This document shows positions 1,205 through 26,810 of a stretch of DNA of 32,000 nucleotides, one piece after another. Each line of letters starts with the position of its first letter. Within the stretch, counting starts at the first letter, position 1. The notes below the pieces were generated by a model that saw nothing but the letters and a program-made list of their open reading frames with translations, was not told the DNA's origin and ran no database searches. The stretch is from contig NZ_KE383931.1 of NCBI RefSeq assembly GCF_000422845.1, positions 531,366 to 563,365 on the forward strand, in the 5' to 3' direction. The position numbers and the translations under genes were made by a program. This stretch comes from Oceanobacter kriegii DSM 6294. GTDB taxonomy: Bacteria > Pseudomonadota > Gammaproteobacteria > Pseudomonadales > Oceanobacteraceae.

Positions 1205-1945
1205 TCAGGGTTTGTGCAGGCCATGGTTCTTGATTTGTGGGGCTACCCGCTGGTGACAGGCGCGGGTCAGGGCTTGCAGATCGATACTGTTGTCCAGTGG
1301 CTGCCAGCCGAGGCCATCCAGCACCAGATTGGTATGTGTCAGATAGGCTACTTCCAGAACCTGGGATTCGCGGATGGCACAACGCTCAACCTGGTCCTGT
1401 AGCAGTGCCACGGTGCCGTAGGCCATCGACCAAATCGCAAAGGCAACACCGCCAGCGTCCATACCCGGCTTGGGCGTCAGCTCACCGTTGTCAATGGCGT
1501 CCACGATCACGCTGCAGAACAGCCGATTCAAATCGTCTTCCAGCGCCATGTGCTCTTCGGTGTGGTGTTGTGAAGCCTTGGCCCGGGTGGCTGGTGTTTT
1601 CGCCGTCACCACCAGATTGAAACGGGTCATGTCGGATTGCGCATGCAGCAAATAGGAATACGCCAGACACAGCGCTTTCTCTCGGGTGGAGCCTTCAAAA
1701 TCAATCGCTGCGGCAAACACCTCAATCAGGGTACTGACGCAGTAGTTGCACATGGCCGTCAGCAGGTCTTCCTTGCTGGAGTAATGGCCGTATACGGTGC
1801 CTTTTGAGTACGGCACTTTGGCAACCACCTTATCGATGGTGACGGCACCGACTCCACCGCCGCTGCGAATCAACTCCAGTGCAGCCCCCATAATGACTTG
1901 CTGGCGTTGCTGTTTGTCTTCGTCGTTGATGATCTTCGGGGCCAT
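1205..1945 (-). CDS. TetR/AcrR-family transcriptional regulator
   Basis: ORF track 1205..1972. The N-terminal HTH region (ALELIRSGGGVGAVTIDKVVAKVPYSKGTVYGHYSSKEDLL) is typical of TetR. The track start is a TTG lying inside a palindrome, so I prefer ATG at 1945 (MAPKIIND...). It lies directly upstream of, and co-directional with, the RND exporter gene. Confidence 0.85.
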   Translation of the reverse strand: MAPKIINDEDKQQRQQVIMGAALELIRSGGGVGAVTIDKVVAKVPYSKGTVYGHYSSKEDLLTAMCNYCVSTLIEVFAAAIDFEGSTREKALCLAYSYLLHAQSDMTRFNLVVTAKTPATRAKASQHHTEEHMALEDDLNRLFCSVIVDAIDNGELTPKPGMDAGGVAFAIWSMAYGTVALLQDQVERCAIRESQVLEVAYLTHTNLVLDGLGWQPLDNSIDLQALTRACHQRVAPQIKNHGLHKP

Positions 1946-1958
1946 ATCGCTACCAGTT

Positions 1959-1982
1959 TGACGATTCGTCAAAATAAAACAG
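1959..1982. promoter_or_regulatory. Candidate TetR operator, copy 1 (TGACGATTCGTCAAAATAAAACAG)
   Basis: It contains a perfect 7-1-7 palindrome TTGACGA-T-TCGTCAA (1958-1972), 13 nt upstream of the tetR ATG. It is the first of three related 24-mers. Confidence 0.5.
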
Positions 1983-2038
1983 TTAAAAAAGCGAAGTGGT
2001 TCAACCCAACTTCGCCGATGGAAAACGCTGACGTTTTC

Positions 2039-2062
2039 TGACTAATCGTCAAAATAAAACAG
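2039..2062. promoter_or_regulatory. Candidate TetR operator, copy 2 (TGACTAATCGTCAAAATAAAACAG)
   Basis: 22/24 identical to copy 1, 80 bp away. Confidence 0.45.
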
Positions 2063-2120
2063 CCCACTCTGATCGAAAAGCATCCAGATTGAAACAATCC
2101 GTTCCCTCAGGCGCTTTAAT

Positions 2121-2144
2121 TGACGATCCGTCGAAATAAAGTCG
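2121..2144. promoter_or_regulatory. Candidate TetR operator, copy 3 (TGACGATCCGTCGAAATAAAGTCG)
   Basis: 19/24 identical to copy 1, 82 bp from copy 2. It retains the TGACGAnnCGTC half-sites. Confidence 0.35.
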
Positions 2145-2854
2145 TCGACCAACAAGCATCCCGGTACGGATGCTCAGGAGTCAGAGGTCAGGAGTCAGAC
2201 CGGAGAGGCGCGTAAGTTAATCAGGTAGCTCCCTAGGTAGCTCCGGGTGGTTAAGGAAGCCTTTAAAGAAACAAAAACGAATTGATCAGCACGGAAAATA
2301 AATAGTGATATCCGGGTAATACAATACCAATATCTAATAGCAAAGCGGTTATTCACTACCCTTTTGAATAAACAAAACCTGGATTACAAATAATAACGTT
2401 ACAGCCTTAAAGCACAGCTCAAATGTGTCAATAAGGTGACATTTTGATGGGTGTATTTATTCACCGAGCACAGGTCAGCGCTGACATAAGCCGCGCCTTT
2501 GACCACTTTGGCACAGACAGGATTTGTGCCCGTCTGATCGCACCTCAAACTGCGCCCAAAACGCCCGTCATCAGGGCTTTGGTGCTCAATCACCCTGTCA
2601 GTCCGACCGCGATAAAAAGCCGCCAGCATAAAACGTGATATACTCTGCTCAGCGCAATATCAATGAAACCGTTCACCCGGATATGAGTTTGAATTGCCCT
2701 GCCATTATGAGAATCATTTTCATTAAGTTGTTTGCGCAGGGACATGCTAAAAACGGCGGCTTTTGCATACGAATGGGCTGGCTCGAAAAATAGCCAAAAA
2801 ACAACACATTCACAAAAGTTATTACAGATATTCACGCCATTTATAGCGTTTTCA

Positions 2855-2883
2855 TTGAGCTGTTAACGAGTTTTCAATATCTT
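2855..2883 (+). promoter_or_regulatory. Candidate sigma-70 promoter for acnB (TTGAGC-17-TATCTT)
   Basis: Hexamers read directly from the sequence: -35 at 2855-2860 and -10 at 2878-2883, about 40 nt upstream of the acnB ATG. This is pattern matching only. Confidence 0.3.
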
Positions 2884-2923
2884 ATTGCGCGATCAAAATT
2901 AGACTAGATGAGATGTGGGCGCT

Positions 2924-5716
2924 ATGAGTTACTATTCAGAATATCTACAAGAAATTGAGGTTCGTAAAAAGGACCTGGGTCTGAACCCGAAGCCAATCGA
3001 CAGTGCCGAGCTGCTGTCTGAAATCATTGCCCAGATCAAAGACACCGGCAATGAGCACCGCGAAGCATCTCTGAACTTCTTCATTTATAACACTCTGCCA
3101 GGTACGACGCCTGCTGCAGTTGTTAAATCTGCATTCCTGAAAGAGATCGTACTGGGTAACGAAGTGGTTGCCGAGATCTCTCCTGAGTTTGCTCTGGAGC
3201 AGCTGTCTCACATGAAGGGTGGCCCATCTGTTGCTGCTCTGCTGGACGTTGCCCTGTCTGACCACGCTCAAGCCGCTGCTGCTGGCGAAGTGCTGAAGTC
3301 CCAGGTATTCCTGTACGACGCCGACTACGAGCGTCTGGCCGCTGCCTTCAAAGAAGGTAACGCTGTTGCCAAGGAACTGCTGGAAAGCTACGCCAAGGCT
3401 GAGTTCTTCACCAAGTTGGACGATATCCCAGAAAAAATCGACGTGGTGACCTACATCGCGGCAGAAGGTGATATCTCTACCGACCTGCTGTCTCCGGGTA
3501 ACCAGTCTCACTCCCGTGCTGACCGTGAACTGCACGGCCTGTGCATGATCAGCCCTGAAGCACAGAAAGAAATCGTTGAACTGGGCAAACAGCACCCGAA
3601 CGCCAAAGTGATGCTGATCGCTGAAAAAGGCACCATGGGTGTGGGTTCTTCCCGTATGTCCGGTGTGAACAACGTAGCGCTGTGGGCTGGTGAAAAGACT
3701 TCCCCATACATCCCGTTCATCAACAACCGTCCAGTGGTTGCTGGTACCAACGGTATTGCGCCTATCTTCCTGACCACCGTGGGTGTGACCGGCGGTATTG
3801 GTCTGGACCTGAAAAACTGGGTCAAGAAAGTTGATGCAGACGGCAACGTGGTACGTGACGAAAACGGCGATCCAGTACTGGAAGAAGCCTACTCCGTTGC
3901 TACCGGTACCGTGCTGACCATCGATACCAAAGCCAAGAAGCTGTACAACGGCGATAAGGAACTGGTAGACGTATCTGCTTCTTTCACTCCACAGAAAGTG
4001 GAATTCATGAAAGCCGGCGGTTCCTACGCAGTAACCTTCGGTAAGAAGCTGCAAACCTTTGCTGCTGAAACCCTGGGTGTTGAAGCTCCAGCCGTTTACG
4101 CACAGGCGAAAGAAATCTCCATCGAAGGTCAGGGTCTGACTGCCGTAGAGAAAATCTTCAACCGTAACGCCATCGGTGTTAACTCCAAGACTCCGCTGCA
4201 CACGGGTTCCGACGTTCGCGTTAAGGTGAACATCGTAGGTTCCCAGGACACTACCGGTCCTATGACCTGTCAGGAACTGGAATCCATGGCGGCTTCCACC
4301 ATCTCTGCAACCGTCGATGGTGCTTTCCAGTCTGGTTGTCACACTGCTTCTGTATGGGACAAGAAAGCTCAGGCCAACACGCCTAAGCTGATGGCCTTCA
4401 TGAACGCGTTTGGTGTAATCACCGCACGTGACCCGAAAGGCATCTACCACTCCATGACCGACGTAATCCACAAGGTTCTGAACGACATTACTGTCGACGA
4501 CCGTGCGATCATCATCGGTGGTGACTCTCACACCCGTATGTCCAAGGGCGTGGCCTTCGGTGCTGACTCCGGTACTGTTGCTATCGCACTGGCGACCGGT
4601 GAAGCAGAAATGCCAATCCCTGAGTCTGTGAAGGTTACCTTCAAAGGCAACATGAAGCCTCACATGGACTTCCGTGACATCGTTCACGCCACCCAGGCTC
4701 AGATGCTGAAGCAGTTCCAGGGCGAAAACGTCTTCCAGGGTCGTGTGATCGAAGTACAAATCGGTACCCTGCTGGCTGACCAGGCCTTCACCTTCACCGA
4801 CTGGACTGCAGAAATGAAAGCCAAGGCTTCCATCTGTATCTCCACCGATGAAACCCTGATCGCCTCTCTGGAACTGGCCAAGTCCCGTATCCAGATCATG
4901 ATCAACAAGGGCATGGACAACGAAGCCAAGATGCTGGAAGGCCTGATTGCTCTGGCCGACAAGCGAATTGCTGAAGTTAAGTCCGGTGAAGCCCCTGCAC
5001 TGGCTCCAGACGACAACGCCAAGTACTACGCCGAAGTGGTTGTAGATCTGGACTCTATCGAAGAGCCAATGATCGCTGACCCGGACGTTAACAACGAAGA
5101 CGTGTCCAAGCGTTACACCCACGATGTGATCCGTCCAACTTCCTACTACGATGGCCGCAAAGTTGATCTGGGCTTCGTTGGTTCTTGTATGGTTCACAAG
5201 GGCGACATGCAGATCATCGCTGCGATGCTGCGTAATCTGGAGAAGAACGGTCCGGTTACCTTCAAGGCTCCACTGGTTGTTGCGCCACCAACGTACAACA
5301 TCGTTGACGAACTGAAGGCCGAAGGCGACTGGGACATCCTGTCCAAGTACGCTGGCTTCACCTTCGACGACGAGAATCCAAAGCAAGCCGCTCGTACCCA
5401 GTACGAGAACATCATGTACCTGGAGCGTCCAGGATGTAACCTGTGTATGGGTAACCAGGAAAAAGCAGCGCCTGGCGACACCGTACTGGCGACTTCCACC
5501 CGTCTGTTCCAGGGCCGTGTGGTAGAAGATACTGCCGAGAAGAAAGGTGAGTCCCTGCTGGGCTCTACCCCAATGGTTGTTCTGTCCTGTGTTCTGGGTC
5601 GCTTCCCGACTCTGGAAGAGTACAAGGCTGCCGTTGAAGGTATTAACCTGACTTCCTTCGCGCCACCAAGCAAGGACCTGAGCGTTTCCGGTGATATCCC
5701 GGTAGTTGCTGTGTAA
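2924..5716 (+). CDS. acnB: Aconitate hydratase B (bifunctional aconitase 2 / 2-methylisocitrate dehydratase type), long form
   Basis: ORF track 2915..5716. AcnB signature blocks are visible: VGSQDTTGPMT, IGGDSHTRM, GFVGSCM, PGCNLCMGNQ. The N-terminus MSYYSEYLQEIEVRKK parallels the E. coli AcnB N-terminus, so I prefer ATG 2924 over GTG 2915. Codon bias is strong. Confidence 0.93.
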   Translation: MSYYSEYLQEIEVRKKDLGLNPKPIDSAELLSEIIAQIKDTGNEHREASLNFFIYNTLPGTTPAAVVKSAFLKEIVLGNEVVAEISPEFALEQLSHMKGGPSVAALLDVALSDHAQAAAAGEVLKSQVFLYDADYERLAAAFKEGNAVAKELLESYAKAEFFTKLDDIPEKIDVVTYIAAEGDISTDLLSPGNQSHSRADRELHGLCMISPEAQKEIVELGKQHPNAKVMLIAEKGTMGVGSSRMSGVNNVALWAGEKTSPYIPFINNRPVVAGTNGIAPIFLTTVGVTGGIGLDLKNWVKKVDADGNVVRDENGDPVLEEAYSVATGTVLTIDTKAKKLYNGDKELVDVSASFTPQKVEFMKAGGSYAVTFGKKLQTFAAETLGVEAPAVYAQAKEISIEGQGLTAVEKIFNRNAIGVNSKTPLHTGSDVRVKVNIVGSQDTTGPMTCQELESMAASTISATVDGAFQSGCHTASVWDKKAQANTPKLMAFMNAFGVITARDPKGIYHSMTDVIHKVLNDITVDDRAIIIGGDSHTRMSKGVAFGADSGTVAIALATGEAEMPIPESVKVTFKGNMKPHMDFRDIVHATQAQMLKQFQGENVFQGRVIEVQIGTLLADQAFTFTDWTAEMKAKASICISTDETLIASLELAKSRIQIMINKGMDNEAKMLEGLIALADKRIAEVKSGEAPALAPDDNAKYYAEVVVDLDSIEEPMIADPDVNNEDVSKRYTHDVIRPTSYYDGRKVDLGFVGSCMVHKGDMQIIAAMLRNLEKNGPVTFKAPLVVAPPTYNIVDELKAEGDWDILSKYAGFTFDDENPKQAARTQYENIMYLERPGCNLCMGNQEKAAPGDTVLATSTRLFQGRVVEDTAEKKGESLLGSTPMVVLSCVLGRFPTLEEYKAAVEGINLTSFAPPSKDLSVSGDIPVVAV

Positions 5717-17917: not shown

Positions 17918-20842
17918 ATGACTCAAACTCTGTCTCTGCAACAACTGGAACAGCGCGATGGCTTTGTTGGCCGTCATATCGCCTCCAACGGTGCCGGCTT
18001 CAGTAACGCCGAAACCGCCGCCATGCTGGAAGCAATCAACGCGGAATCGCTGGACGCACTGACCGCCGAAATCGTCCCATCGGACATTCTCAGCGACGCC
18101 TTTCTGGAAATTGACGACAGCAAGACCGAGTTTGAAGCGCTGAACTACCTGCGCGGTCTGGCTAACCAGAACAAGGTATTCAAAAGCTACATTGGCCTGG
18201 GCTACCACGACACCATCATCCCCAACGTAATCCTGCGTAACGTGCTGGAAAACCCGGGCTGGTACACCGCCTACACCCCATACCAGCCAGAAATCGCCCA
18301 GGGCCGTCTGGAAGCCCTGCTGAACTTCCAGCAAATGGTCATCGACATGACCGGCATGGAACTGGCCAACGCCTCCCTGCTGGACGAAGGTACTGCCGCT
18401 GCTGAAGCCATGGCGATGGCCAAGCGTTCTGTTAAAAAGAACAAATCCAGCACCTTCTTCATTGACGAAAACTGCCTGCCGCAAACCATCGACGTGGTCA
18501 AAACCCGCGCTGAAGCGTTCGGTTGGGACGTACTGGTTGGCCCGGCTGACGACGCTGCCAGCGCCGACGTATTCGGTGCGCTGTTCCAGTACCCGGGCAA
18601 AAACGGTGACGTGCGTGACTTCACCGCACTGATTGACGCCCTGCACGCCAACAACGCGCTGGTTGCTATGGCCACCGACCTGATGGCACTGGTGAACCTG
18701 AAAGCACCGGGTGAAATGGGTGCCGACATCGTTCTGGGTAACGCCCAGCACCTTGGTGTGCCAATGGGCTTTGGTGGCCCACACGCAGCCTTCTTCGCCA
18801 CTCGCGACGCCTTCAAGCGTTCTATCCCGGGCCGTATCATCGGTGTTTCCATCGACGCCAATGGCAAGCCCGCCCTGCGTATGGCGCTGCAAACCCGCGA
18901 ACAGCACATTCGTCGTGAGAAAGCCAACTCCAACATCTGTACCGCTCAGGTGCTGCTGGCCAACCTGTCTTCCTTCTACGCTGTGTACCACGGTCCACAG
19001 GGCCTGAAGACCATCGCTGGCCGCATTCACCGCCTGGCCGATATTCTGGCCGCGGGCCTGAAGAAAGGCGGCATTGAACTGCTGAACGACAGCTGGTTCG
19101 ACACCCTCACCTTCAAGGTTGCCGACCGTGACGCCGTGCTGGGCCGCGCCGACGACGCCGAAGTGAACCTGCGTGACGACCTGCGCCTGCAAGGTACCGA
19201 CACTCTGGGCGTATCCATCAGCGAAAAAACCTCTGCTGCCGACGTGCAACAGCTGTTCGACGTTATTCTGGGTGGCTCTGTTGATACCCATGGTCTGGAT
19301 GTGTACGCACTGGACGCCGAAATCGTTGCCAACGGTTCTGAATCCATTCCGGCCGACGCCGCACGTAACACCGAATTCCTGACCCACCCGACCTTCAACC
19401 AGTACCACACCGAGCACGACATGCTGCGGTACATGAAGCGTCTGGAAGCCAAAGACCTGGCCATGAACCACAGCATGATCACGCTGGGTTCCTGCACCAT
19501 GAAACTGAACGCCACCACCGAAATGATCCCGGTGACCTGGCCTGAGTTCGCCAACATTCACCCGTTTGCCCCTGCCGACCAAACGGTTGGCTACCGCACC
19601 ATGATTGGCGAACTGAACGACTACCTGAAAACCATCACCGGCTTGCCAGCCGTGTGCATGCAGCCAAACTCAGGTGCTCAAGGTGAATACGCCGGTCTGC
19701 TGGCGATCAAGAAATACCACGAGAGCCGTGGCGAAGGTCACCGCAACGTGTGTCTGATTCCACGCTCCGCTCACGGTACCAACCCAGCGTCCGCCCAGAT
19801 GGCCTCCATGCGCGTTGTGGTCACCGACTGTGACGAACACGGCAACGTGGATTTCAACGACCTCAAAGCCAAGGCCGAAGAGCTGAAAGACCAGCTGTCC
19901 TGCCTGATGCTGACCTACCCGTCGACCCACGGCGTGTACGAAAAAGGCGTGAAGGAAATCTGCGACCTGATCCACGCCAACGGCGGTCAGGTATACATGG
20001 ACGGCGCCAACCTGAACGCACAGGTGGGCCTGACTGCCCCTGGCATCATCGGTGCCGACGTGACCCACATGAACCTGCACAAAACCTTCGCCATTCCACA
20101 CGGTGGCGGTGGCCCGGGCATGGGTCCTATTGGCGTTGCTGCACACCTGGCGCCGTTTGTTGCCAACCACAGCGTGGCACCGATTGACGACGCCGCCAAA
20201 GGCAACGGCGCGGTATCCTCCGCCCCATACGGCTCCTCCAGCATCCTGCCAATCAGCTGGATGTACATCACCCTGATGGGCGGCAACGGCCTGCGTCTGG
20301 CCACCCAAAACGCACTGCTGAAAGCCAACTACCTGGCCAAGCGCCTGGCAGACCACTACCCGATTCTGTACACCGGCCAAAACGACCGCGTGGCACACGA
20401 ATGCATCGTCGACCTGCGCCCAATCAAGGCCGAAACCGGCGTGACCGAAGTGGATATCGCCAAGCGCCTGATGGACTACGGCTTCCACGCCCCGACCATG
20501 TCGTTCCCGGTAGCGGGCACCTTCATGATCGAACCGACCGAATCCGAATCCAAAGCCGAAATCGACCGCTTCGCAGATGCCATGATCTCCATCAAACAGG
20601 AAATCAACGCCATCCACGCTGGTGAAATGGACGCCGAAAACAACGCCCTCAAACACGCCCCGCACACCGCGGAAGTGATTGCAGGCGAATGGGACCGCCC
20701 ATACAGCCGCGAACAAGCCGTGTACCCAACCAAAAACCTGGGTGCCCACAAGTTCTGGCCAAGCGTCGGCCGTATCGACGATGTATACGGCGACCGCAAC
20801 CTGATCTGCTCCTGCCCGGCGATTGAAAACTACGAAGACTAA
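17918..20842 (+). CDS. gcvP: Glycine dehydrogenase (decarboxylating), P protein
   Basis: 974 aa. It is collinear by eye with E. coli GcvP (MTQTLS..., [53 protein letters not shown]). Confidence 0.97.
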
Positions 20843-20850
20843 CTTGGAAC

Positions 20851-20871
20851 GCGCCCCAACCCATGGGGCGC
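20851..20871 (+). terminator. Hairpin after the gcvP stop (no T-tract)
   Basis: GCGCCCCA-accca-TGGGGCGC forms an 8-bp GC-rich stem and is followed by AAATCAACG, so it is probably a leaky terminator. It sits exactly at the left edge of the low-GC islet. Confidence 0.4.
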
Positions 20872-20879
20872 AAATCAAC

Positions 20880-21527
20880 GTGAAACCAGAAATTCGTGCC
20901 AAACTCAGACTAATTGATCACCTAATAGCGACCCAAAGGTTAGCTGAAGGTGATCTTTTAATTAGTGAATTTAGACTTCCAAATAAAAAAAGGCGCGTTG
21001 ACTTGGCACTTTTCACAACAAGCCGAGCGATAGCTTTCGAAATAAAAACAGAAGGTGATAATTTATCCAGACTTTCTGAACAAGTAAAAGATCTTTCCAC
21101 TCATTTTGATAAGGTCATAGTTTTTTGCGCTCATAAACACTACAACAATGCGAAGAAATTAGTTTCTAAAAGTATAGAAATATGGTCTTACAACGATAAG
21201 AAAACAAAGCTATTACAACGAGGTAGATCCAACATAAAAAACACTAAAGCCATAATAGAACTACTTCCAAAGTATGAGCGTCACACGATCAAAAACAGAA
21301 ATGACGCACTAAATAAAATAAGAAAAAAATTCAGAAAGAATATCGAATTGTTTTGGAAAATCAGATCCCAAAAGAAAAATTGCGACTTAAAAGATCTGAT
21401 ATCAATTAGCAGGACTCCCCCAAAGGATCAAACCAAGAAAACCAGCGATGATCTCTGGACTTCTATCATAGAGGATCAATCTTCCCAATCTTCATCTGAA
21501 TCAATTTCAGATAATTCTTCATCATAA
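20880..21527 (+). CDS. PD-(D/E)xK nuclease-fold protein, sce7726/MmcB-like
   Basis: ORF track 20823..21527. The motif E30...D41(VDLAL)...E54-I-K56(FEIKT), followed by LSRLSEQ...FDKV, matches my recollection of the sce7726/MmcB pattern. The start is uncertain: GTG 20880 is preferred, and the TTG starts at 20823 and 20844 lie in or next to the gcvP 3' end. The Lys-rich C-terminal half ends in a Ser-rich tail. Confidence 0.6.
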   Translation: MKPEIRAKLRLIDHLIATQRLAEGDLLISEFRLPNKKRRVDLALFTTSRAIAFEIKTEGDNLSRLSEQVKDLSTHFDKVIVFCAHKHYNNAKKLVSKSIEIWSYNDKKTKLLQRGRSNIKNTKAIIELLPKYERHTIKNRNDALNKIRKKFRKNIELFWKIRSQKKNCDLKDLISISRTPPKDQTKKTSDDLWTSIIEDQSSQSSSESISDNSSS

Positions 21528-22564
21528 TGAAGCTGATTGTATAAATGTATGTTTATTCTTACTGCTGTCGACTTCATCGGAGTGGATATTGCGTAATCGT
21601 TACCTTGAGCCGTCAGTTCAATCATTTGAGTACCCCATACTTTCAATTCAGGCTGCCAATAATCTTTCACCATAATCTCATTTGCAGCCCACCTATATTG
21701 ATCAGTTCTATTGGGTATTGAGCCTTCCCTATAACGAACATAACGCCAACTATTTTTCAAAGGAAAGTCAATCCTAGGAACAGGAACACCACCACCGCCT
21801 CTATTCTCTTTGACACGTGCACTTGCATAATCAGAGTAAATTAAATTGCCTCTGAAATTCTTGATAAGATTGTTATACAAAAGCCTTTCACATATTGGGT
21901 TTTCTCCATTTTCCGTACCCCCAAATCCATCTGGGAAAGAACTACCACTGATACAAAAATCAGCACTTGGAAAAATACTCCGAGCCTTTTCTAGCCAACC
22001 CAAGAAAATATCATTATATTTTTGCGTACCAGAATCAATCCTTCCAAAATCAAAAATAATTAAACAAGGATCAAAACCAGACAGCATATTAATTAATCCC
22101 AGCCAGCGTCCAGTCTCGATATCAAGCAAGGAAAACCGTATAACAAATTGCCGCCCAGACCTAGTTAGAGTTTGACACTGTTCAATCACATGGTCGAATT
22201 CTTCCGTTTGAATCACCGGTATGCACCAATCATACGAGAGTACAAATTCAGTCCAGTTTTTATACCCCCCCGTCGGATCCATCAAAGCCTTTAATTGTTC
22301 ATAGACCGGACGTGGAAAACTTCCACTAACCAAATAATCCTTATTTTCAAAAACATATTCATAATCTAAATCTAATATGACATTCCCCGCTCCCAAACTC
22401 TCGAGCTTAGATATCGAATTCGAAATATCTTTAGCAGCCAACCATCCTTTCAGCTTTATACATGGAGATAGGTTTTTTTTATCTTTATCTGGAAGTTCAG
22501 AAAACGCCATAATTTCAGCAGGACTTAGAGATAATATAGGAAGGTATTCAGTTGATTCATACAT
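21476..22564 (-). CDS. Beta_protein-family (sce7725-like; P4 beta-like) protein, function unknown
   Basis: 362 aa. The N-terminus reads Y-L-P-I-L-x6-E-x2-A-x2-E-L, with later blocks GSSFPDGF, IYSDYASARV and NSWRYVRY. Length and motifs fit my memory of Pfam Beta_protein (PF14350). GGTGA lies 6 nt upstream of the ATG, and the gene starts 2 nt after the peptidase stop. Confidence 0.55.
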   Translation of the reverse strand: MYESTEYLPILSLSPAEIMAFSELPDKDKKNLSPCIKLKGWLAAKDISNSISKLESLGAGNVILDLDYEYVFENKDYLVSGSFPRPVYEQLKALMDPTGGYKNWTEFVLSYDWCIPVIQTEEFDHVIEQCQTLTRSGRQFVIRFSLLDIETGRWLGLINMLSGFDPCLIIFDFGRIDSGTQKYNDIFLGWLEKARSIFPSADFCISGSSFPDGFGGTENGENPICERLLYNNLIKNFRGNLIYSDYASARVKENRGGGGVPVPRIDFPLKNSWRYVRYREGSIPNRTDQYRWAANEIMVKDYWQPELKVWGTQMIELTAQGNDYAISTPMKSTAVRINIHLYNQLHYDEELSEIDSDEDWED

Positions 22565-22566
22565 TT

Positions 22567-23070
22567 TTAATCACCCACCCTAATTTTCAAAGCCACCACA
22601 GATACTTCTAGCTCTTGAGCAGCTTTTTCAAGGGCATACTCTTTTTTCTCACCTGCATAGTTAGAGATGCAACTTCTAACAAGATTTCCAGGCATCAATA
22701 TGTCAGCTGCGATCCTATTAGCTTGCGTTTCCATTGCGTTTGAAAGATTTGATCTATACAAAACATCATCGACAATACCATCTCCTATTAAATCCCGATG
22801 AAGAAGGAAATGACCAATTTCATGTGCAATTGTAAATCGCTGCCTTTCTGATGTATCGTGACGATTAACCTTGATAACAAACGTTCCATCTATATTTCTT
22901 ATCTCTCCAGAGACACTAGCGGACAGCGTCGACTTCTTAACAACCAACCCCAAAGACTTCGCGACAGCACCAATTTTCACGGGGGCTTCGAGTTGAAAAC
23001 TAGAGATTATTCTTTGAATTTCGGGAGAGATCAAATCCCACTCTCGCGAGTACTCGTTTAACTTAACCAT
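22567..23070 (-). CDS. ImmA/IrrE-family zinc metallo-endopeptidase (COG2856 / Peptidase_M78)
   Basis: HExxH is present as HEIGH (nt 22810-22824, verified codon by codon) in the context RQRFTIAHEIGHFLLH...METQANRIAADILMP. I prefer ATG 23070 (MVKLNEY...), which overlaps the upstream stop as ATGGTTAA. The track start 23115 is unlikely. Confidence 0.85.
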   Translation of the reverse strand: MVKLNEYSREWDLISPEIQRIISSFQLEAPVKIGAVAKSLGLVVKKSTLSASVSGEIRNIDGTFVIKVNRHDTSERQRFTIAHEIGHFLLHRDLIGDGIVDDVLYRSNLSNAMETQANRIAADILMPGNLVRSCISNYAGEKKEYALEKAAQELEVSVVALKIRVGD

Positions 23071-23731
23071 TATTATCGATCCCCCGATAAATTGCTCTTT
23101 CAACCCCGTTCTCAACCATATTATAAACCAGTTTTTCCAAACCTTTTTGGAAATCGCTCTTCTCTACAACATTACCATCAGCGTCATACAAAGAGCGATC
23201 ATCGACAATCGAATTCTTGAGGGATTCATATACCATTTGAGGCAATTCCTGCTCAGCCACTCTATTTATTTCCTGTCGAGCCTTTTCAGATACTAAATTT
23301 TGAAGTTTTTTGTATCCAAATATTGATGCAACACCAATCAATATCGTAAGTGCCGTCATAATAACGGTTATAGTACCTAAAAGGACGCTGACCCACCCAC
23401 TCCAGCCCTCATCTCTAGAGTTGATTTTATTCAACCCTACTTTTACAGCTTCTAATGCCTCACTAATTTCAGCAATAGATTCCGAATTAGTAGCAATAGA
23501 CTGCGAGCCCAACTCTAAACCATTTAAAGAGTCTTGAATTTTATCTATGCGGGATCTCAAATAAGATATTTCATCATATTGCCGATGAACTTGACCGAGA
23601 ACAACATCTGGATTCTCAGAGGGAAAAACAAGATCTCTTGAAACATCCTTATCGAATTCCGAATTACTTTCCGCATGTAAATTAACTGCCCCACCAAGAA
23701 ATATCGAGATAAATATCAACAACTTCCACAT
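23063..23731 (-). CDS. Bitopic membrane protein: signal peptide, periplasmic coiled-coil, one TM, ~70-aa cytoplasmic tail; no recognisable family
   Basis: The signal peptide is MWKLLIFISIFLGGAVNLHA|ES. A heptad-like region follows (ISYLRSRIDKIQDSLNGLELG...ALEAVKVGLNKI), then the TM segment WVSVLLGTITVIMTALTILIGVASIFGY. GAGGA lies 7 nt upstream of the ATG. It is the first gene of the islet operon. Confidence 0.7.
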   Translation of the reverse strand: MWKLLIFISIFLGGAVNLHAESNSEFDKDVSRDLVFPSENPDVVLGQVHRQYDEISYLRSRIDKIQDSLNGLELGSQSIATNSESIAEISEALEAVKVGLNKINSRDEGWSGWVSVLLGTITVIMTALTILIGVASIFGYKKLQNLVSEKARQEINRVAEQELPQMVYESLKNSIVDDRSLYDADGNVVEKSDFQKGLEKLVYNMVENGVERAIYRGIDNNG

Positions 23732-23764
23732 CAGTTCATCCTCAATTCAGTCTCCATCTAGTGG

Positions 23765-23792
23765 ATAATAAAGTAACTTGTATAAATAACAA
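23765..23792 (-). promoter_or_regulatory. Candidate sigma-70 promoter of the islet operon (TTGTTA-16-TATTAT)
   Basis: Read on the minus strand: -35 at plus 23787-23792 and -10 at plus 23765-23770, about 35 nt upstream of the ATG at 23731. Confidence 0.4.
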
Positions 23793-24274
23793 TCATAAAT
23801 CTATTGCTTACTGCCCTCTATATGACCATACTGCAGCATTAGCTATATGGACTACCAGATTTTATACACCGGTCAGAGCCTTTCCCCACTCACATAACCT
23901 CTCGCACTGGAATAGCGCAGTGTTCTGCCAAGTCAACGTAACCCCGTTTCACTAGGTTATGGTGAAGATATTCGATTTTCTGCCGCATCATATCAACGCC
24001 CATCTCGCTCTCACGCTCCGCGCTGTATTACAGCGGTTTCACACTCACGACGCCTGTCTTTCCCGGGAGCGCGGGCCGCTGGCCCGCTCTTGATGCAGAC
24101 GACCTGCGCGGCCCGAGCCGTCCTCGCTCCCAGCCAAGTTACACAACTCCTCCCAAGACACTACTGAAGACCCATGGTCTTGTGCGTTCAGCGCCCTACA
24201 CTGAGAGAAAACAATAATAACCCGCGTGGCAGCGTGTCTTTGGACAGCATGCTGTGCGGTGAACCGGAGGTAGC

Positions 24275-25825: not shown

Positions 25826-26068
25826 CTACTTCTGAAACCCGTACAGTTGGCCGGGGTAAAAGCGTTCGTCCACTTGCTGACCGTCGATAAACAATCCAAT
25901 CAGCAAGTTGGAAAAACTCTCTATAATGGCTTTGCCTTGGTTGTCGGTGTATACCGCTGGCAGCAATCGACGGTGGCCGTCCATGTAGATGCCTTCCAGT
26001 GAAACATGCTGAATGCCGTTTCCTTGTGCGTCCATAATGTGAAAATAGAAGGCGTGCTCTGGCAGCAT
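25826..26068 (-). CDS. Small hypothetical protein (80 aa)
   Basis: GGAG lies 8 nt upstream of the ATG. The composition is protein-like, unlike the overlapping Arg-rich ORF 25680..26123. It is co-directional with the amidohydrolase gene. Confidence 0.45.
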   Translation of the reverse strand: MLPEHAFYFHIMDAQGNGIQHVSLEGIYMDGHRRLLPAVYTDNQGKAIIESFSNLLIGLFIDGQQVDERFYPGQLYGFQK

Positions 26069-26195
26069 GGGCCTCGCTCCATGTGTTGATAAATGAATAA
26101 TTATCAGTTGAATTAAAGACCAAAAATTACCATTCAGCAGCGCACTTATGCTGTAAACACCGGTCTACGGAGACCCACATCAAGCTTTGTTGATC

Positions 26196-26810
26196 ATGCC
26201 CTTGTCACGCGCAAAACATTTAAGTCGTATTTTTCTGGCCACCACGGCTGCTGCTACCAGTCTGGCGCCGGACATGGCGTTTGCTGCCTGCGACCCCACC
26301 AGCCGTAGCCTCTGGAAAAGTGCTTACGTTAACGGCGGCATCTTGCTGCGCGATGGCGAACTGCGCGACGTCGATCTTTATAACCTGTCGATTGGAGCCA
26401 AGCACACCGCCTGGTGTGTCAGCCAGGATTGGGAAGCGTCGCTGGCAGGCAAGGTGTATTACTCCCAGCGGGAAGTCCGACTGGAGAGCGCGCGTATTCG
26501 AAGCCAGGTGATGGGGTTTGGCCTGGCGCGGATGTCGTACGACAACTGGACCCAAACCGATGGTTTTACCCCTTACGGCGTGCTGAATCTGGAAAAGAGC
26601 AACATCAAGCGCAGCAACGATGAGGGCACCCAAACCCGCGATCACTCCAGTGTGTTTGTGTGGGGCATTGGTATTGAACAAACCCTTGGCCCAGAGGATT
26701 CCATCACTCTGGATTTGTCGCGCCGCTTCAAGTTCGACAAGATTGCCAGCGACCGGCTCAGCGACGAAATCGTGCTGACGCTGAAATTCAACTTTCTGCG
26801 ATTGCTCTGA
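26196..26810 (+). CDS. Secreted, possibly outer-membrane beta-barrel-like hypothetical protein
   Basis: The signal peptide is MPLSRAKHLSRIFLATTAAATSLAPDMAFA|AC. Alternating-hydrophobicity strands are visible, with an aromatic-rich C-terminus (LTLKFNF). The track start is TTG 26187. No good SD is visible. Confidence 0.5.
   Translation: MPLSRAKHLSRIFLATTAAATSLAPDMAFAACDPTSRSLWKSAYVNGGILLRDGELRDVDLYNLSIGAKHTAWCVSQDWEASLAGKVYYSQREVRLESARIRSQVMGFGLARMSYDNWTQTDGFTPYGVLNLEKSNIKRSNDEGTQTRDHSSVFVWGIGIEQTLGPEDSITLDLSRRFKFDKIASDRLSDEIVLTLKFNFLRLL

Follow-up and report, generated by a model that had tools for sequence, protein, structure and literature searches.

Two described anti-phage systems offer the closest parallels to a low-GC islet of four genes that lies directly behind gcvP in Oceanobacter kriegii DSM 6294. 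The islet falls within a stretch of 32,000 nucleotides (contig NZ_KE383931.1, positions 531,366 to 563,365 of the forward strand), here called the window, and all coordinates count from the first letter of that stretch. The first of the two systems, gop-beta-cII, belongs to the satellite phage P4, where gop (133 aa), beta (355 aa) and a convergent cII (264 aa, 'sce7726 family protein') stand beside int. It shields E. coli from lambda and P1, and in the absence of beta its gop gene is toxic (Rousset 2022, PMC9122126); an earlier description of the P4 genes, by Ghisotti in 1990, is cited in that paper. With gop-beta-cII, expression of the phage accessory gene orf184 results in programmed cell death (bioRxiv 10.1101/2023.04.06.535777). 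The system is listed as 'gop_beta_cll' in DefenseFinder/PADLOC, and the PADLOC gop, beta and cll models derive from P4. In the second system, PD-lambda-2, an Xre-M78 fusion is toxic alone, a HigB-like gene rescues, and a Beta-like gene is needed for defence (Vassallo 2022, PMC9519451).

The four genes of the islet, with a candidate promoter for the three that form an operon, are arranged as follows.

20880..21527, plus strand: cII/sce7726-family gene, 215 aa from a conserved GTG (NCBIfam sce7726_fam, 8.8e-28; PADLOC 'cll', 9.6e-28)
21476..22564, minus strand: Beta-family protein (PF14350), 362 aa (Pfam Beta_protein, 3.8e-49; PADLOC 'beta', 1.8e-40)
22567..23070, minus strand: stand-alone zinc metallopeptidase of the ImmA/IrrE-type M78 family, 167 aa from ATG 23070, without a helix-turn-helix (HTH) domain (Pfam Peptidase_M78, 4.4e-19)
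23063..23731, minus strand: single-pass membrane protein, 222 aa, assigned by hydropathy; no family match in Pfam, PADLOC, NCBIfam or PHROGs
23765..23792, minus strand: candidate sigma-70-like promoter of the membrane protein-peptidase-beta operon (TTGTTA, 16 nt spacer, TATTAT)

It is likely that the islet is a horizontally acquired cassette of the gop-beta-cII / PD-lambda-2 type, lodged in a variable chromosomal slot. The event is an ordinary acquisition of a defence cassette at a chromosomal hotspot. The cassette is apparently an unnamed, conserved four-gene variant of the gop-beta-cII / PD-lambda-2 lineage, and no description of such a variant was found in the literature on PF14350, gop_beta_cll and sce7726.

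Comparison with the known systems

The likeness to P4 gop-beta-cII extends to both content and layout. The window encodes a homologous Beta (PF14350), 26.6% identical to P4 beta over 95% of its length (tblastn 4e-22), and a homologous cII/sce7726 protein whose gene is convergent and placed right after beta. A small gene for a membrane-type protein heads the beta operon, and in other hosts the cassette stands at the edge of integrative elements, beside int, as it does in P4. Unlike P4, however, the window has two genes before beta, the 222-aa membrane protein and the stand-alone M78 peptidase, rather than one. Its beta and cII genes overlap by 52 bp, whereas a terminator separates them in P4, and the cassette is chromosomal, outside any satellite and in a slot that is not a tRNA gene. 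That the first gene might encode a Gop homologue was considered and rejected. The PADLOC gop model recognises P4 Gop (4.8e-70) and matched none of five first-gene proteins compared with it, and the 18% identity between the first gene and Gop is not significant. The peptidase aligns with Gop at a BLASTP E of 4.7.

With PD-lambda-2 the cassette shares the order of a small upstream gene, an M78 peptidase and a Beta-like protein. The first gene of the window encodes a membrane protein that has no PADLOC or Pfam match and is not HigB-like, and the peptidase lacks the Xre HTH, matching only positions 270-374 of the 402-position PD-Lambda-2_B model. PD-lambda-2 was described with three components and no cII, whereas the window has the cII/sce7726 nuclease-fold gene. 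The PD-Lambda-2_C model matches the window Beta weakly (1.1e-4, residues 167-322 only), compared with 1.8e-40 for the 'beta' model. The cassette thus misses a defining component of both systems. A further resemblance, in the M78 fold and the intact HExxH...E site, is to the IrrE-DdrO and CapP-CapH (CBASS) switches; unlike these, the cassette has no adjacent gene for an HTH repressor substrate, and no CBASS genes accompany it.

It might be supposed that the cassette serves addiction alone, as a selfish toxin-antitoxin module that contributes nothing to phage defence and is kept only because its loss kills. The gop/beta pair and PD-lambda-2 are indeed toxin-antitoxin-like (PMC9122126, PMC9519451), and the operon in the window is tight and translationally coupled. 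Yet both characterised relatives protect against phage (PMC9122126, PMC9519451), and the cassette is found elsewhere in the defence hotspots of satellites and prophages. Moreover, addiction would not require four conserved components, among them a peptidase and a protein of nuclease fold. Pure addiction therefore seems unlikely.

The products of the four genes

The cII product scores 97.5 bits against NF033832 (cutoff 70). Searching for homologues with the single sequence returned only itself and the copy in the sister islet described below; further homologues came only from a profile search. Sequence searches of the PDB with cII, including its profile, gave nothing meaningful. The structural model (AlphaFold2, pLDDT 89) predicts an N-terminal nuclease-fold domain followed by a helical C-terminal part. 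In Foldseek its top match is 3dnx (E 3.8e-5, TMt 0.63, rmsd 3.0 over 125 columns), with SfsA, XisH, Hjc and the nuclease domain of Can2 lower in the ranking. Residues E30, D41, E54 and K56 are invariant in 48 sequences and make up an intact E...D...ExK motif. The N-terminal domain is, as modelled, a predicted PD-(D/E)XK nuclease fold, with putative catalytic activity.

The start codon of cII deserves comment. The public gene call (P0121, 227 aa) begins at TTG 20844, within the hairpin that follows gcvP, while GTG 20880 aligns with the TTG start of the sister gene. The family alignment and the sister gene support GTG 20880 over TTG 20844. Only 37 bp, with no promoter-like site, separate the gcvP stop from this start, and cII may therefore be transcribed by read-through from gcvTHP.

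Beta is predicted with high confidence (AlphaFold2, pLDDT 90.9, pTM 0.91) to be an alternating beta/alpha barrel. Its structural matches are generic TIM-barrel enzymes only (TM 0.33-0.42), and a sequence search of the PDB with Beta gave nothing meaningful. A Cas1 match at E 0.6 in the PDB sequence searches with Beta and cII was disregarded. About 30 residues are invariant among Beta homologues, many of them polar or aromatic, and the invariant polar residues suggest a ligand-binding or catalytic site.

Among PADLOC models the peptidase best matches capP (2.7e-29), followed at a distance by PD-Lambda-2_B (1.6e-8), and its PDB matches include IrrE (2.5e-7) and CapP. The HEIGH motif and a downstream Glu, in METQAN, are intact, and both are kept in all five aligned cassette orthologues. 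The membrane protein combines a signal-like N-terminus and a coiled-coil region with one central transmembrane helix, at about residues 113-139; its C-terminal tail is conserved. In every complete cassette the first gene encodes a homologue of 180-216 aa. These proteins are homologous to one another, and the transmembrane helix is conserved among them, as are the motif GYKKI and, at the C-terminus, AVERxAYRxI.

The three minus-strand genes form a tight operon, in which the peptidase ATG overlaps the stop of the membrane-protein gene and beta begins 2 nt past the peptidase stop. The promoter candidate upstream is a consensus match only, and such sites are no commoner than shuffling leads one to expect. 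At the other end, the 3' ends of the convergent beta and cII genes share their 52 bp at 21476-21527. This segment codes the conserved acidic tail of beta, DSDEDWED, on one strand and a low-confidence, Ser-rich cII tail, SSQSSSESISDNSSS, on the other. The overlap is 49 bp in the sister locus and 4 bp in two further carriers (L086 and L087); it is absent from P4 and from the Vibrio vulnificus cassette.

Composition, foreign origin and extent

The sequence-only reading had proposed a low-GC islet at 20872-23945, inserted directly behind gcvP and holding four AT-rich reading frames unlike any flanking gene. Composition bears this out. In 300-bp windows GC is 0.31-0.41 across about 20900-23900, compared with 0.57-0.64 in gcvP and about 0.58 outside the islet, and it is back to 0.58 by 23900-24200, with a recovery zone at about 23900-24050. 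Within the islet, 1.5-kb windows stand at a tetranucleotide distance of z = 8.5-10 above the rest of the window. All four frames are present, and their GC at third codon positions is 0.30-0.37, compared with 0.57-0.73 in flanking genes.

The flanks against which the insertion can be defined are these.

17918..20842, plus strand: gcvP (glycine dehydrogenase), the conserved left flank, with 88% amino acid identity to gcvP of Oceanobacter mangrovi
20851..20871, plus strand: GC-rich hairpin with an 8-bp stem and no U-tract, between the gcvP stop and the cassette (-11.5 kcal/mol, z = -4.2)
23855..23994, minus strand: remnant of a gene for a REP-associated tyrosine transposase (RAYT; REP, repetitive extragenic palindrome), residues 148-194 only, the ancestral right flank (tblastn with the RAYT of L022, a related genome)
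24065..24131, no strand assigned: REP-like GC-rich palindrome (GGGAGCG...CGCTCCC), with 80% column identity to an element directly 3' of gcvP in O. mangrovi (L001)

DNA homology to all relatives stops at the gcvP stop codon. On the right, homology to loci that lack the islet begins at about 23841. The insert is therefore bounded at about 20872/20880 and about 23840, an extent of some 2.96 kb that holds the cassette and about 110 bp of upstream region with the promoter-like site. That the insertion is foreign and directly behind gcvP is borne out by four related genera with an empty site and by the same cassette in unrelated bacteria and on viral contigs.

The islet had also been said to carry no mobility genes. 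For the islet itself this holds: none of its four genes has an integrase or transposase domain (Pfam, NCBIfam, PHROGs). A qualification is called for at the right edge, where the transposase remnant at 23855-23994 abuts the islet. This remnant is part of the ancestral flank and lies outside the islet. In the window as a whole, ARAGORN found no tRNA or tmRNA gene and an Rfam scan gave no family match.

The hairpin noted earlier at the left edge is unusually stable on folding and occurs once in the window. Its stem is kept in the sister locus, with one G-C to G-U change and a different loop, and the hairpin is absent in islet-free relatives. The palindrome at 24065-24131 folds as an imperfect hairpin.

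The same cassette in other hosts

Eleven further loci were traced through Beta homologues at 33-69% identity: the metagenome contigs L082 and L083, V. vulnificus (L084), a 4-Mb genome assembly (L086), Pseudomonas mosselii (L087 and L088), a JGI metagenome contig (L089) and the IMG/VR viral contigs L090-L093. In 11 of 11 the gene for the membrane protein comes first, followed by those for the M78 peptidase and Beta and by a convergent cII, one of the contigs being cut short before the first gene. The cassette is AT-rich in every host found, for example 28-38% GC in a host of 60% GC. A metagenome scan with Beta gave a single locus, at 40% identity, and one database protein (P0040) is a fusion of Beta and M78.

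The neighbourhoods of these cassettes speak of integrative elements. In V. vulnificus the cassette is beside an integrase gene and tRNA-Met, and in P. mosselii L087 it is beside tRNA-Pro. On L089 it adjoins tRNA-Arg, a HEPN/RES protein and a gene like P2 gpA, and on the viral contig L093 it adjoins P2 tail genes. No REP or RAYT neighbours were found beside the cassette in other hosts, where tRNA genes or an integrase gene are present instead.

These surroundings raise the question of whether a P4-like satellite or P2-like prophage once stood behind gcvP and has lost everything but its accessory hotspot genes, leaving the cassette. In P4 and V. vulnificus cII adjoins int at the edge of the element, and on IMG/VR contigs the cassette lies beside P2-type genes. 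In the window, however, the gaps are just 37 bp (gcvP stop to cII) and about 110 bp (operon start to RAYT homology), and no int, cos or other phage fragment is left and no tRNA target is present. The sister locus has equally tight boundaries, and in two other lineages the same slot holds unrelated cargo that is not of phage origin. Reduction of a resident prophage is thus quite unlikely, and acquisition of the cassette in an existing slot remains the preferred explanation.

Directly beside its CI repressor, at 2589-4881, the cultured temperate Pasteurella phage Pmp11 (L094) has genes for a 131-aa protein and a Beta homologue, together with a convergent gene for 260 aa. All three genes are annotated as hypothetical.

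Recurrent use of the gcvP-RAYT spacer as a cargo slot

The genes of the islet were found in none of 80 gcvP loci from GTDB species representatives. Exact look-ups of the gcvP product and of a 192-aa protein encoded downstream in the window gave no match. Comparison with relatives shows the empty state in four related genera (L022, L002, L003 and L007), in which gcvP is followed by 140-440 bp and then by an intact RAYT gene on the minus strand. These spacers hold terminators and REP palindromes. Model NF047646 (cutoff 80) gives 97-98 bits for the RAYT proteins of L022, L002 and L007, and the window has no full-length RAYT matching that model. Its remnant is 73% identical to the L022 protein over residues 148-173 and 62% over residues 174-194, and the DNA alignment agrees.

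Two other lineages have filled the slot differently. In O. mangrovi (L001) a low-GC gene for a 754-aa NACHT-like NTPase lies between the REP element and a RAYT remnant, and in Thalassolituus marinus (L011) the slot holds low-GC genes for a DUF2971 protein and a predicted lipoprotein (187 aa, no family match). Wherever the slot is filled, the RAYT gene has decayed. The position behind gcvP is one that has taken in cargo repeatedly, beside a RAYT gene in decay. Like defence hotspots flanked by core genes, and like REP/RAYT loci, it shows unrelated low-GC cargo alternating at one conserved position, with empty alleles in relatives. It differs from other defence hotspots in that the slot is the gcvP-RAYT spacer and in that RAYT is degraded wherever cargo is present.

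The sister islet, on L082/L083, is the same cassette at the identical site, complete with the hairpin stem and a RAYT pseudogene. Between it and the window the 3' end of gcvP is 83.5% identical in nucleotides, and the cassette is 69-76% identical in nucleotides and 64-81% in amino acids. The gcvP tails of cassette-free species are 87.0% (L001), 84.4% (L005) and 84.1% (L002) identical to that of the window. Since these three are at least as close by this measure as the sister carrier, and yet lack the cassette, its distribution is patchy. At synonymous sites the two carriers differ more in the islet genes (dS 1.6 to saturated) than in gcvP (dS 0.77). An attempt to date the insertion by dN/dS gave no date, islet dS being saturated.

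Another idea is that the RAYT/REP machinery captured or mobilised the cargo, so that the islet would have travelled within a RAYT-flanked unit and would not be a product of ordinary recombination. The three kinds of cargo are all found directly 3' of RAYT, in a spacer that carries REP palindromes at empty sites, and RAYT is decayed at each filled site. Against this, RAYTs are domesticated enzymes whose known targets are REP/REPIN sequences and not cargo genes. The cassettes of other hosts, moreover, have no REP or RAYT neighbours, and no REP copy lies on the gcvP side of the cassette in the window. Capture by RAYT is very unlikely, and we prefer to regard the RAYT gene as the ancestral right-hand border of a slot that the cassette has entered.

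At 24003-24274 of the window, the RAYT gene is without its first ~147 codons. Genes for a TRAP transporter, found between RAYT and the gene for a 192-aa protein in L002 (upstream of that gene in L005), are also absent from the window. Because the RAYT 5' part and the transporter genes are missing, the right flank has also been rearranged or deleted. In T. marinus an AHH-nuclease toxin gene and an Imm11 immunity gene, a polymorphic-toxin pair, lie just past the RAYT remnant (L011, 15488-16706), as further accessory content at the gcvP locus of that species.

The flanking repeats

The sequence-only reading had drawn attention to a pair of 17-mers at the edges of the islet, as a possible target duplication or att remnant.

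20871..20887, plus strand: left 17-mer of the direct repeat, spanning the GTG start codon of cII; not a junction marker
23929..23945, plus strand: right 17-mer of the direct repeat, within the RAYT remnant; not a junction marker

The repeats exist as stated, with 13 of 17 positions identical and a 7-nt core. If they marked junctions, the islet would be an integrated element or its remnant, bounded by a target-site duplication or att sites. Between narrow edge zones, just 2-5% of shuffles give a match of 13/17, and this lends the proposal some weight; the figure rises to 31%, though, for zones of 200-300 bp. The right copy falls in coding sequence of RAYT, where it specifies KRGYVD of the remnant, and it is kept in the islet-free L022 (CTGATCAACGTAACCCC, 14/17 identical) and in L001. 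Homology to the empty sites reaches some 90 bp further left than this copy, as far as about 23841. The 3' end of RAYT (23841-23928) thus lies between the cassette and the right 17-mer, which is the wrong side for a target duplication and would place part of the RAYT gene within the element. Neither copy is kept in the sister islet: the left reads GAATTTACTTGAAACC, with the TCAACGT core lost, and the right region is diverged or deleted. There is also no integrase, tRNA or IS end. The junctions defined by empty sites do not coincide with the 17-mers, the very outcome that the sequence-only reading had itself set against its suggestion, and the repeats are accordingly rejected as boundaries. An att-bounded element is extremely unlikely.

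A perfect 13-nt inverted repeat (CGTTGACTTGGCA / TGCCAAGTCAACG) at 20996-21008 / 23926-23938 overlaps the right 17-mer. It joins the catalytic RVDLAL codons of cII with the YVDLAE codons of the RAYT remnant. About 0.1 such repeats are expected by chance in 3.7 kb. It was rejected as a signal and is probably a matter of chance, its left arm not being conserved in the sister islet.

Possible mechanism and implications

By analogy with P4 gop-beta-cII and PD-lambda-2, the cassette may act as an abortive-infection system that resembles a toxin-antitoxin pair. In the uninfected cell a toxic activity would be held down by its partners, with Beta serving as a neutraliser of the P4 type or as a required co-factor. 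The toxic component would most plausibly be the membrane protein, which occupies the position of Gop, or else the peptidase, by the example of PD-lambda-2B. On a cue from the phage the M78 peptidase would become active and cleave a partner; cleavage might then lead to membrane damage, to release of the cII nuclease, or to both, and the infected cell would be stopped. cII could be the nuclease effector or a regulator. This particular switch is offered tentatively and is less likely than not.

The history of the islet may be pictured in a similar way. In some donor the cassette was probably carried by a P4/P2-like or tRNA-targeting element, as its cargo. Recombination in the REP-rich gcvP-RAYT spacer, and not an integrase, would have fixed it here, and the cargo of the slot would then have been swapped from lineage to lineage, with homologous recombination across the conserved flanks as the probable means.

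Several points weigh against this account of a defence cassette of known lineage acquired by the slot. Phage defence, the identity of the toxin and the substrate of the peptidase are all carried over from other systems by analogy, and recombination into the slot is inferred. Gop is absent, and sequence comparison detects no homology between the first gene and Gop, HigB or any defence model. The HTH repressor that is the usual substrate of ImmA/IrrE peptidases is not encoded in the cassette, and the enzyme-like invariant residues of Beta would fit poorly with a simple antitoxin. As for the history, identities of a single gene make a weak phylogeny, and the higher dS of the islet would fit ancient co-inheritance with faster evolution and exchange of alleles equally.

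There is also a bolder proposal, which we consider doubtful: that the four-gene arrangement is a distinct, widespread and unnamed defence system. In such a system a periplasm-facing, single-pass membrane protein and a stand-alone ImmA/IrrE protease would control cII, as a PD-(D/E)XK nuclease, and Beta, the latter being a TIM-barrel enzyme or sensor rather than a mere antitoxin. The REP-rich RAYT spacer would, separately, be a cargo-capture hotspot whose use coincides with RAYT decay.

What began as an anomaly of composition has become an annotated candidate anti-phage cassette with defined bounds and an empty site. Among marine and clinical gammaproteobacteria a four-gene relative of the P4 system is common, and any rule-based search for defence systems that insists on gop would probably overlook it. 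The predicted folds supply targets for mutation in the TIM barrel of Beta, the PD-(D/E)XK domain of cII and the intact M78 site. The gcvP-RAYT slot, with its four alternative states, constitutes a small natural experiment on the turnover of cargo without mobility genes.

Other features of the window

Downstream of the slot, genes for an 80-aa and a 207-aa protein are divergent at 25826-26810 of the window; in O. mangrovi (L001, 17728-18549) they are convergent and in swapped order, which indicates a local inversion or rearrangement. A milder dip in composition is found at 1501-3500 of the window, where GC is 0.47 and the tetranucleotide z is about 2.0-2.4.

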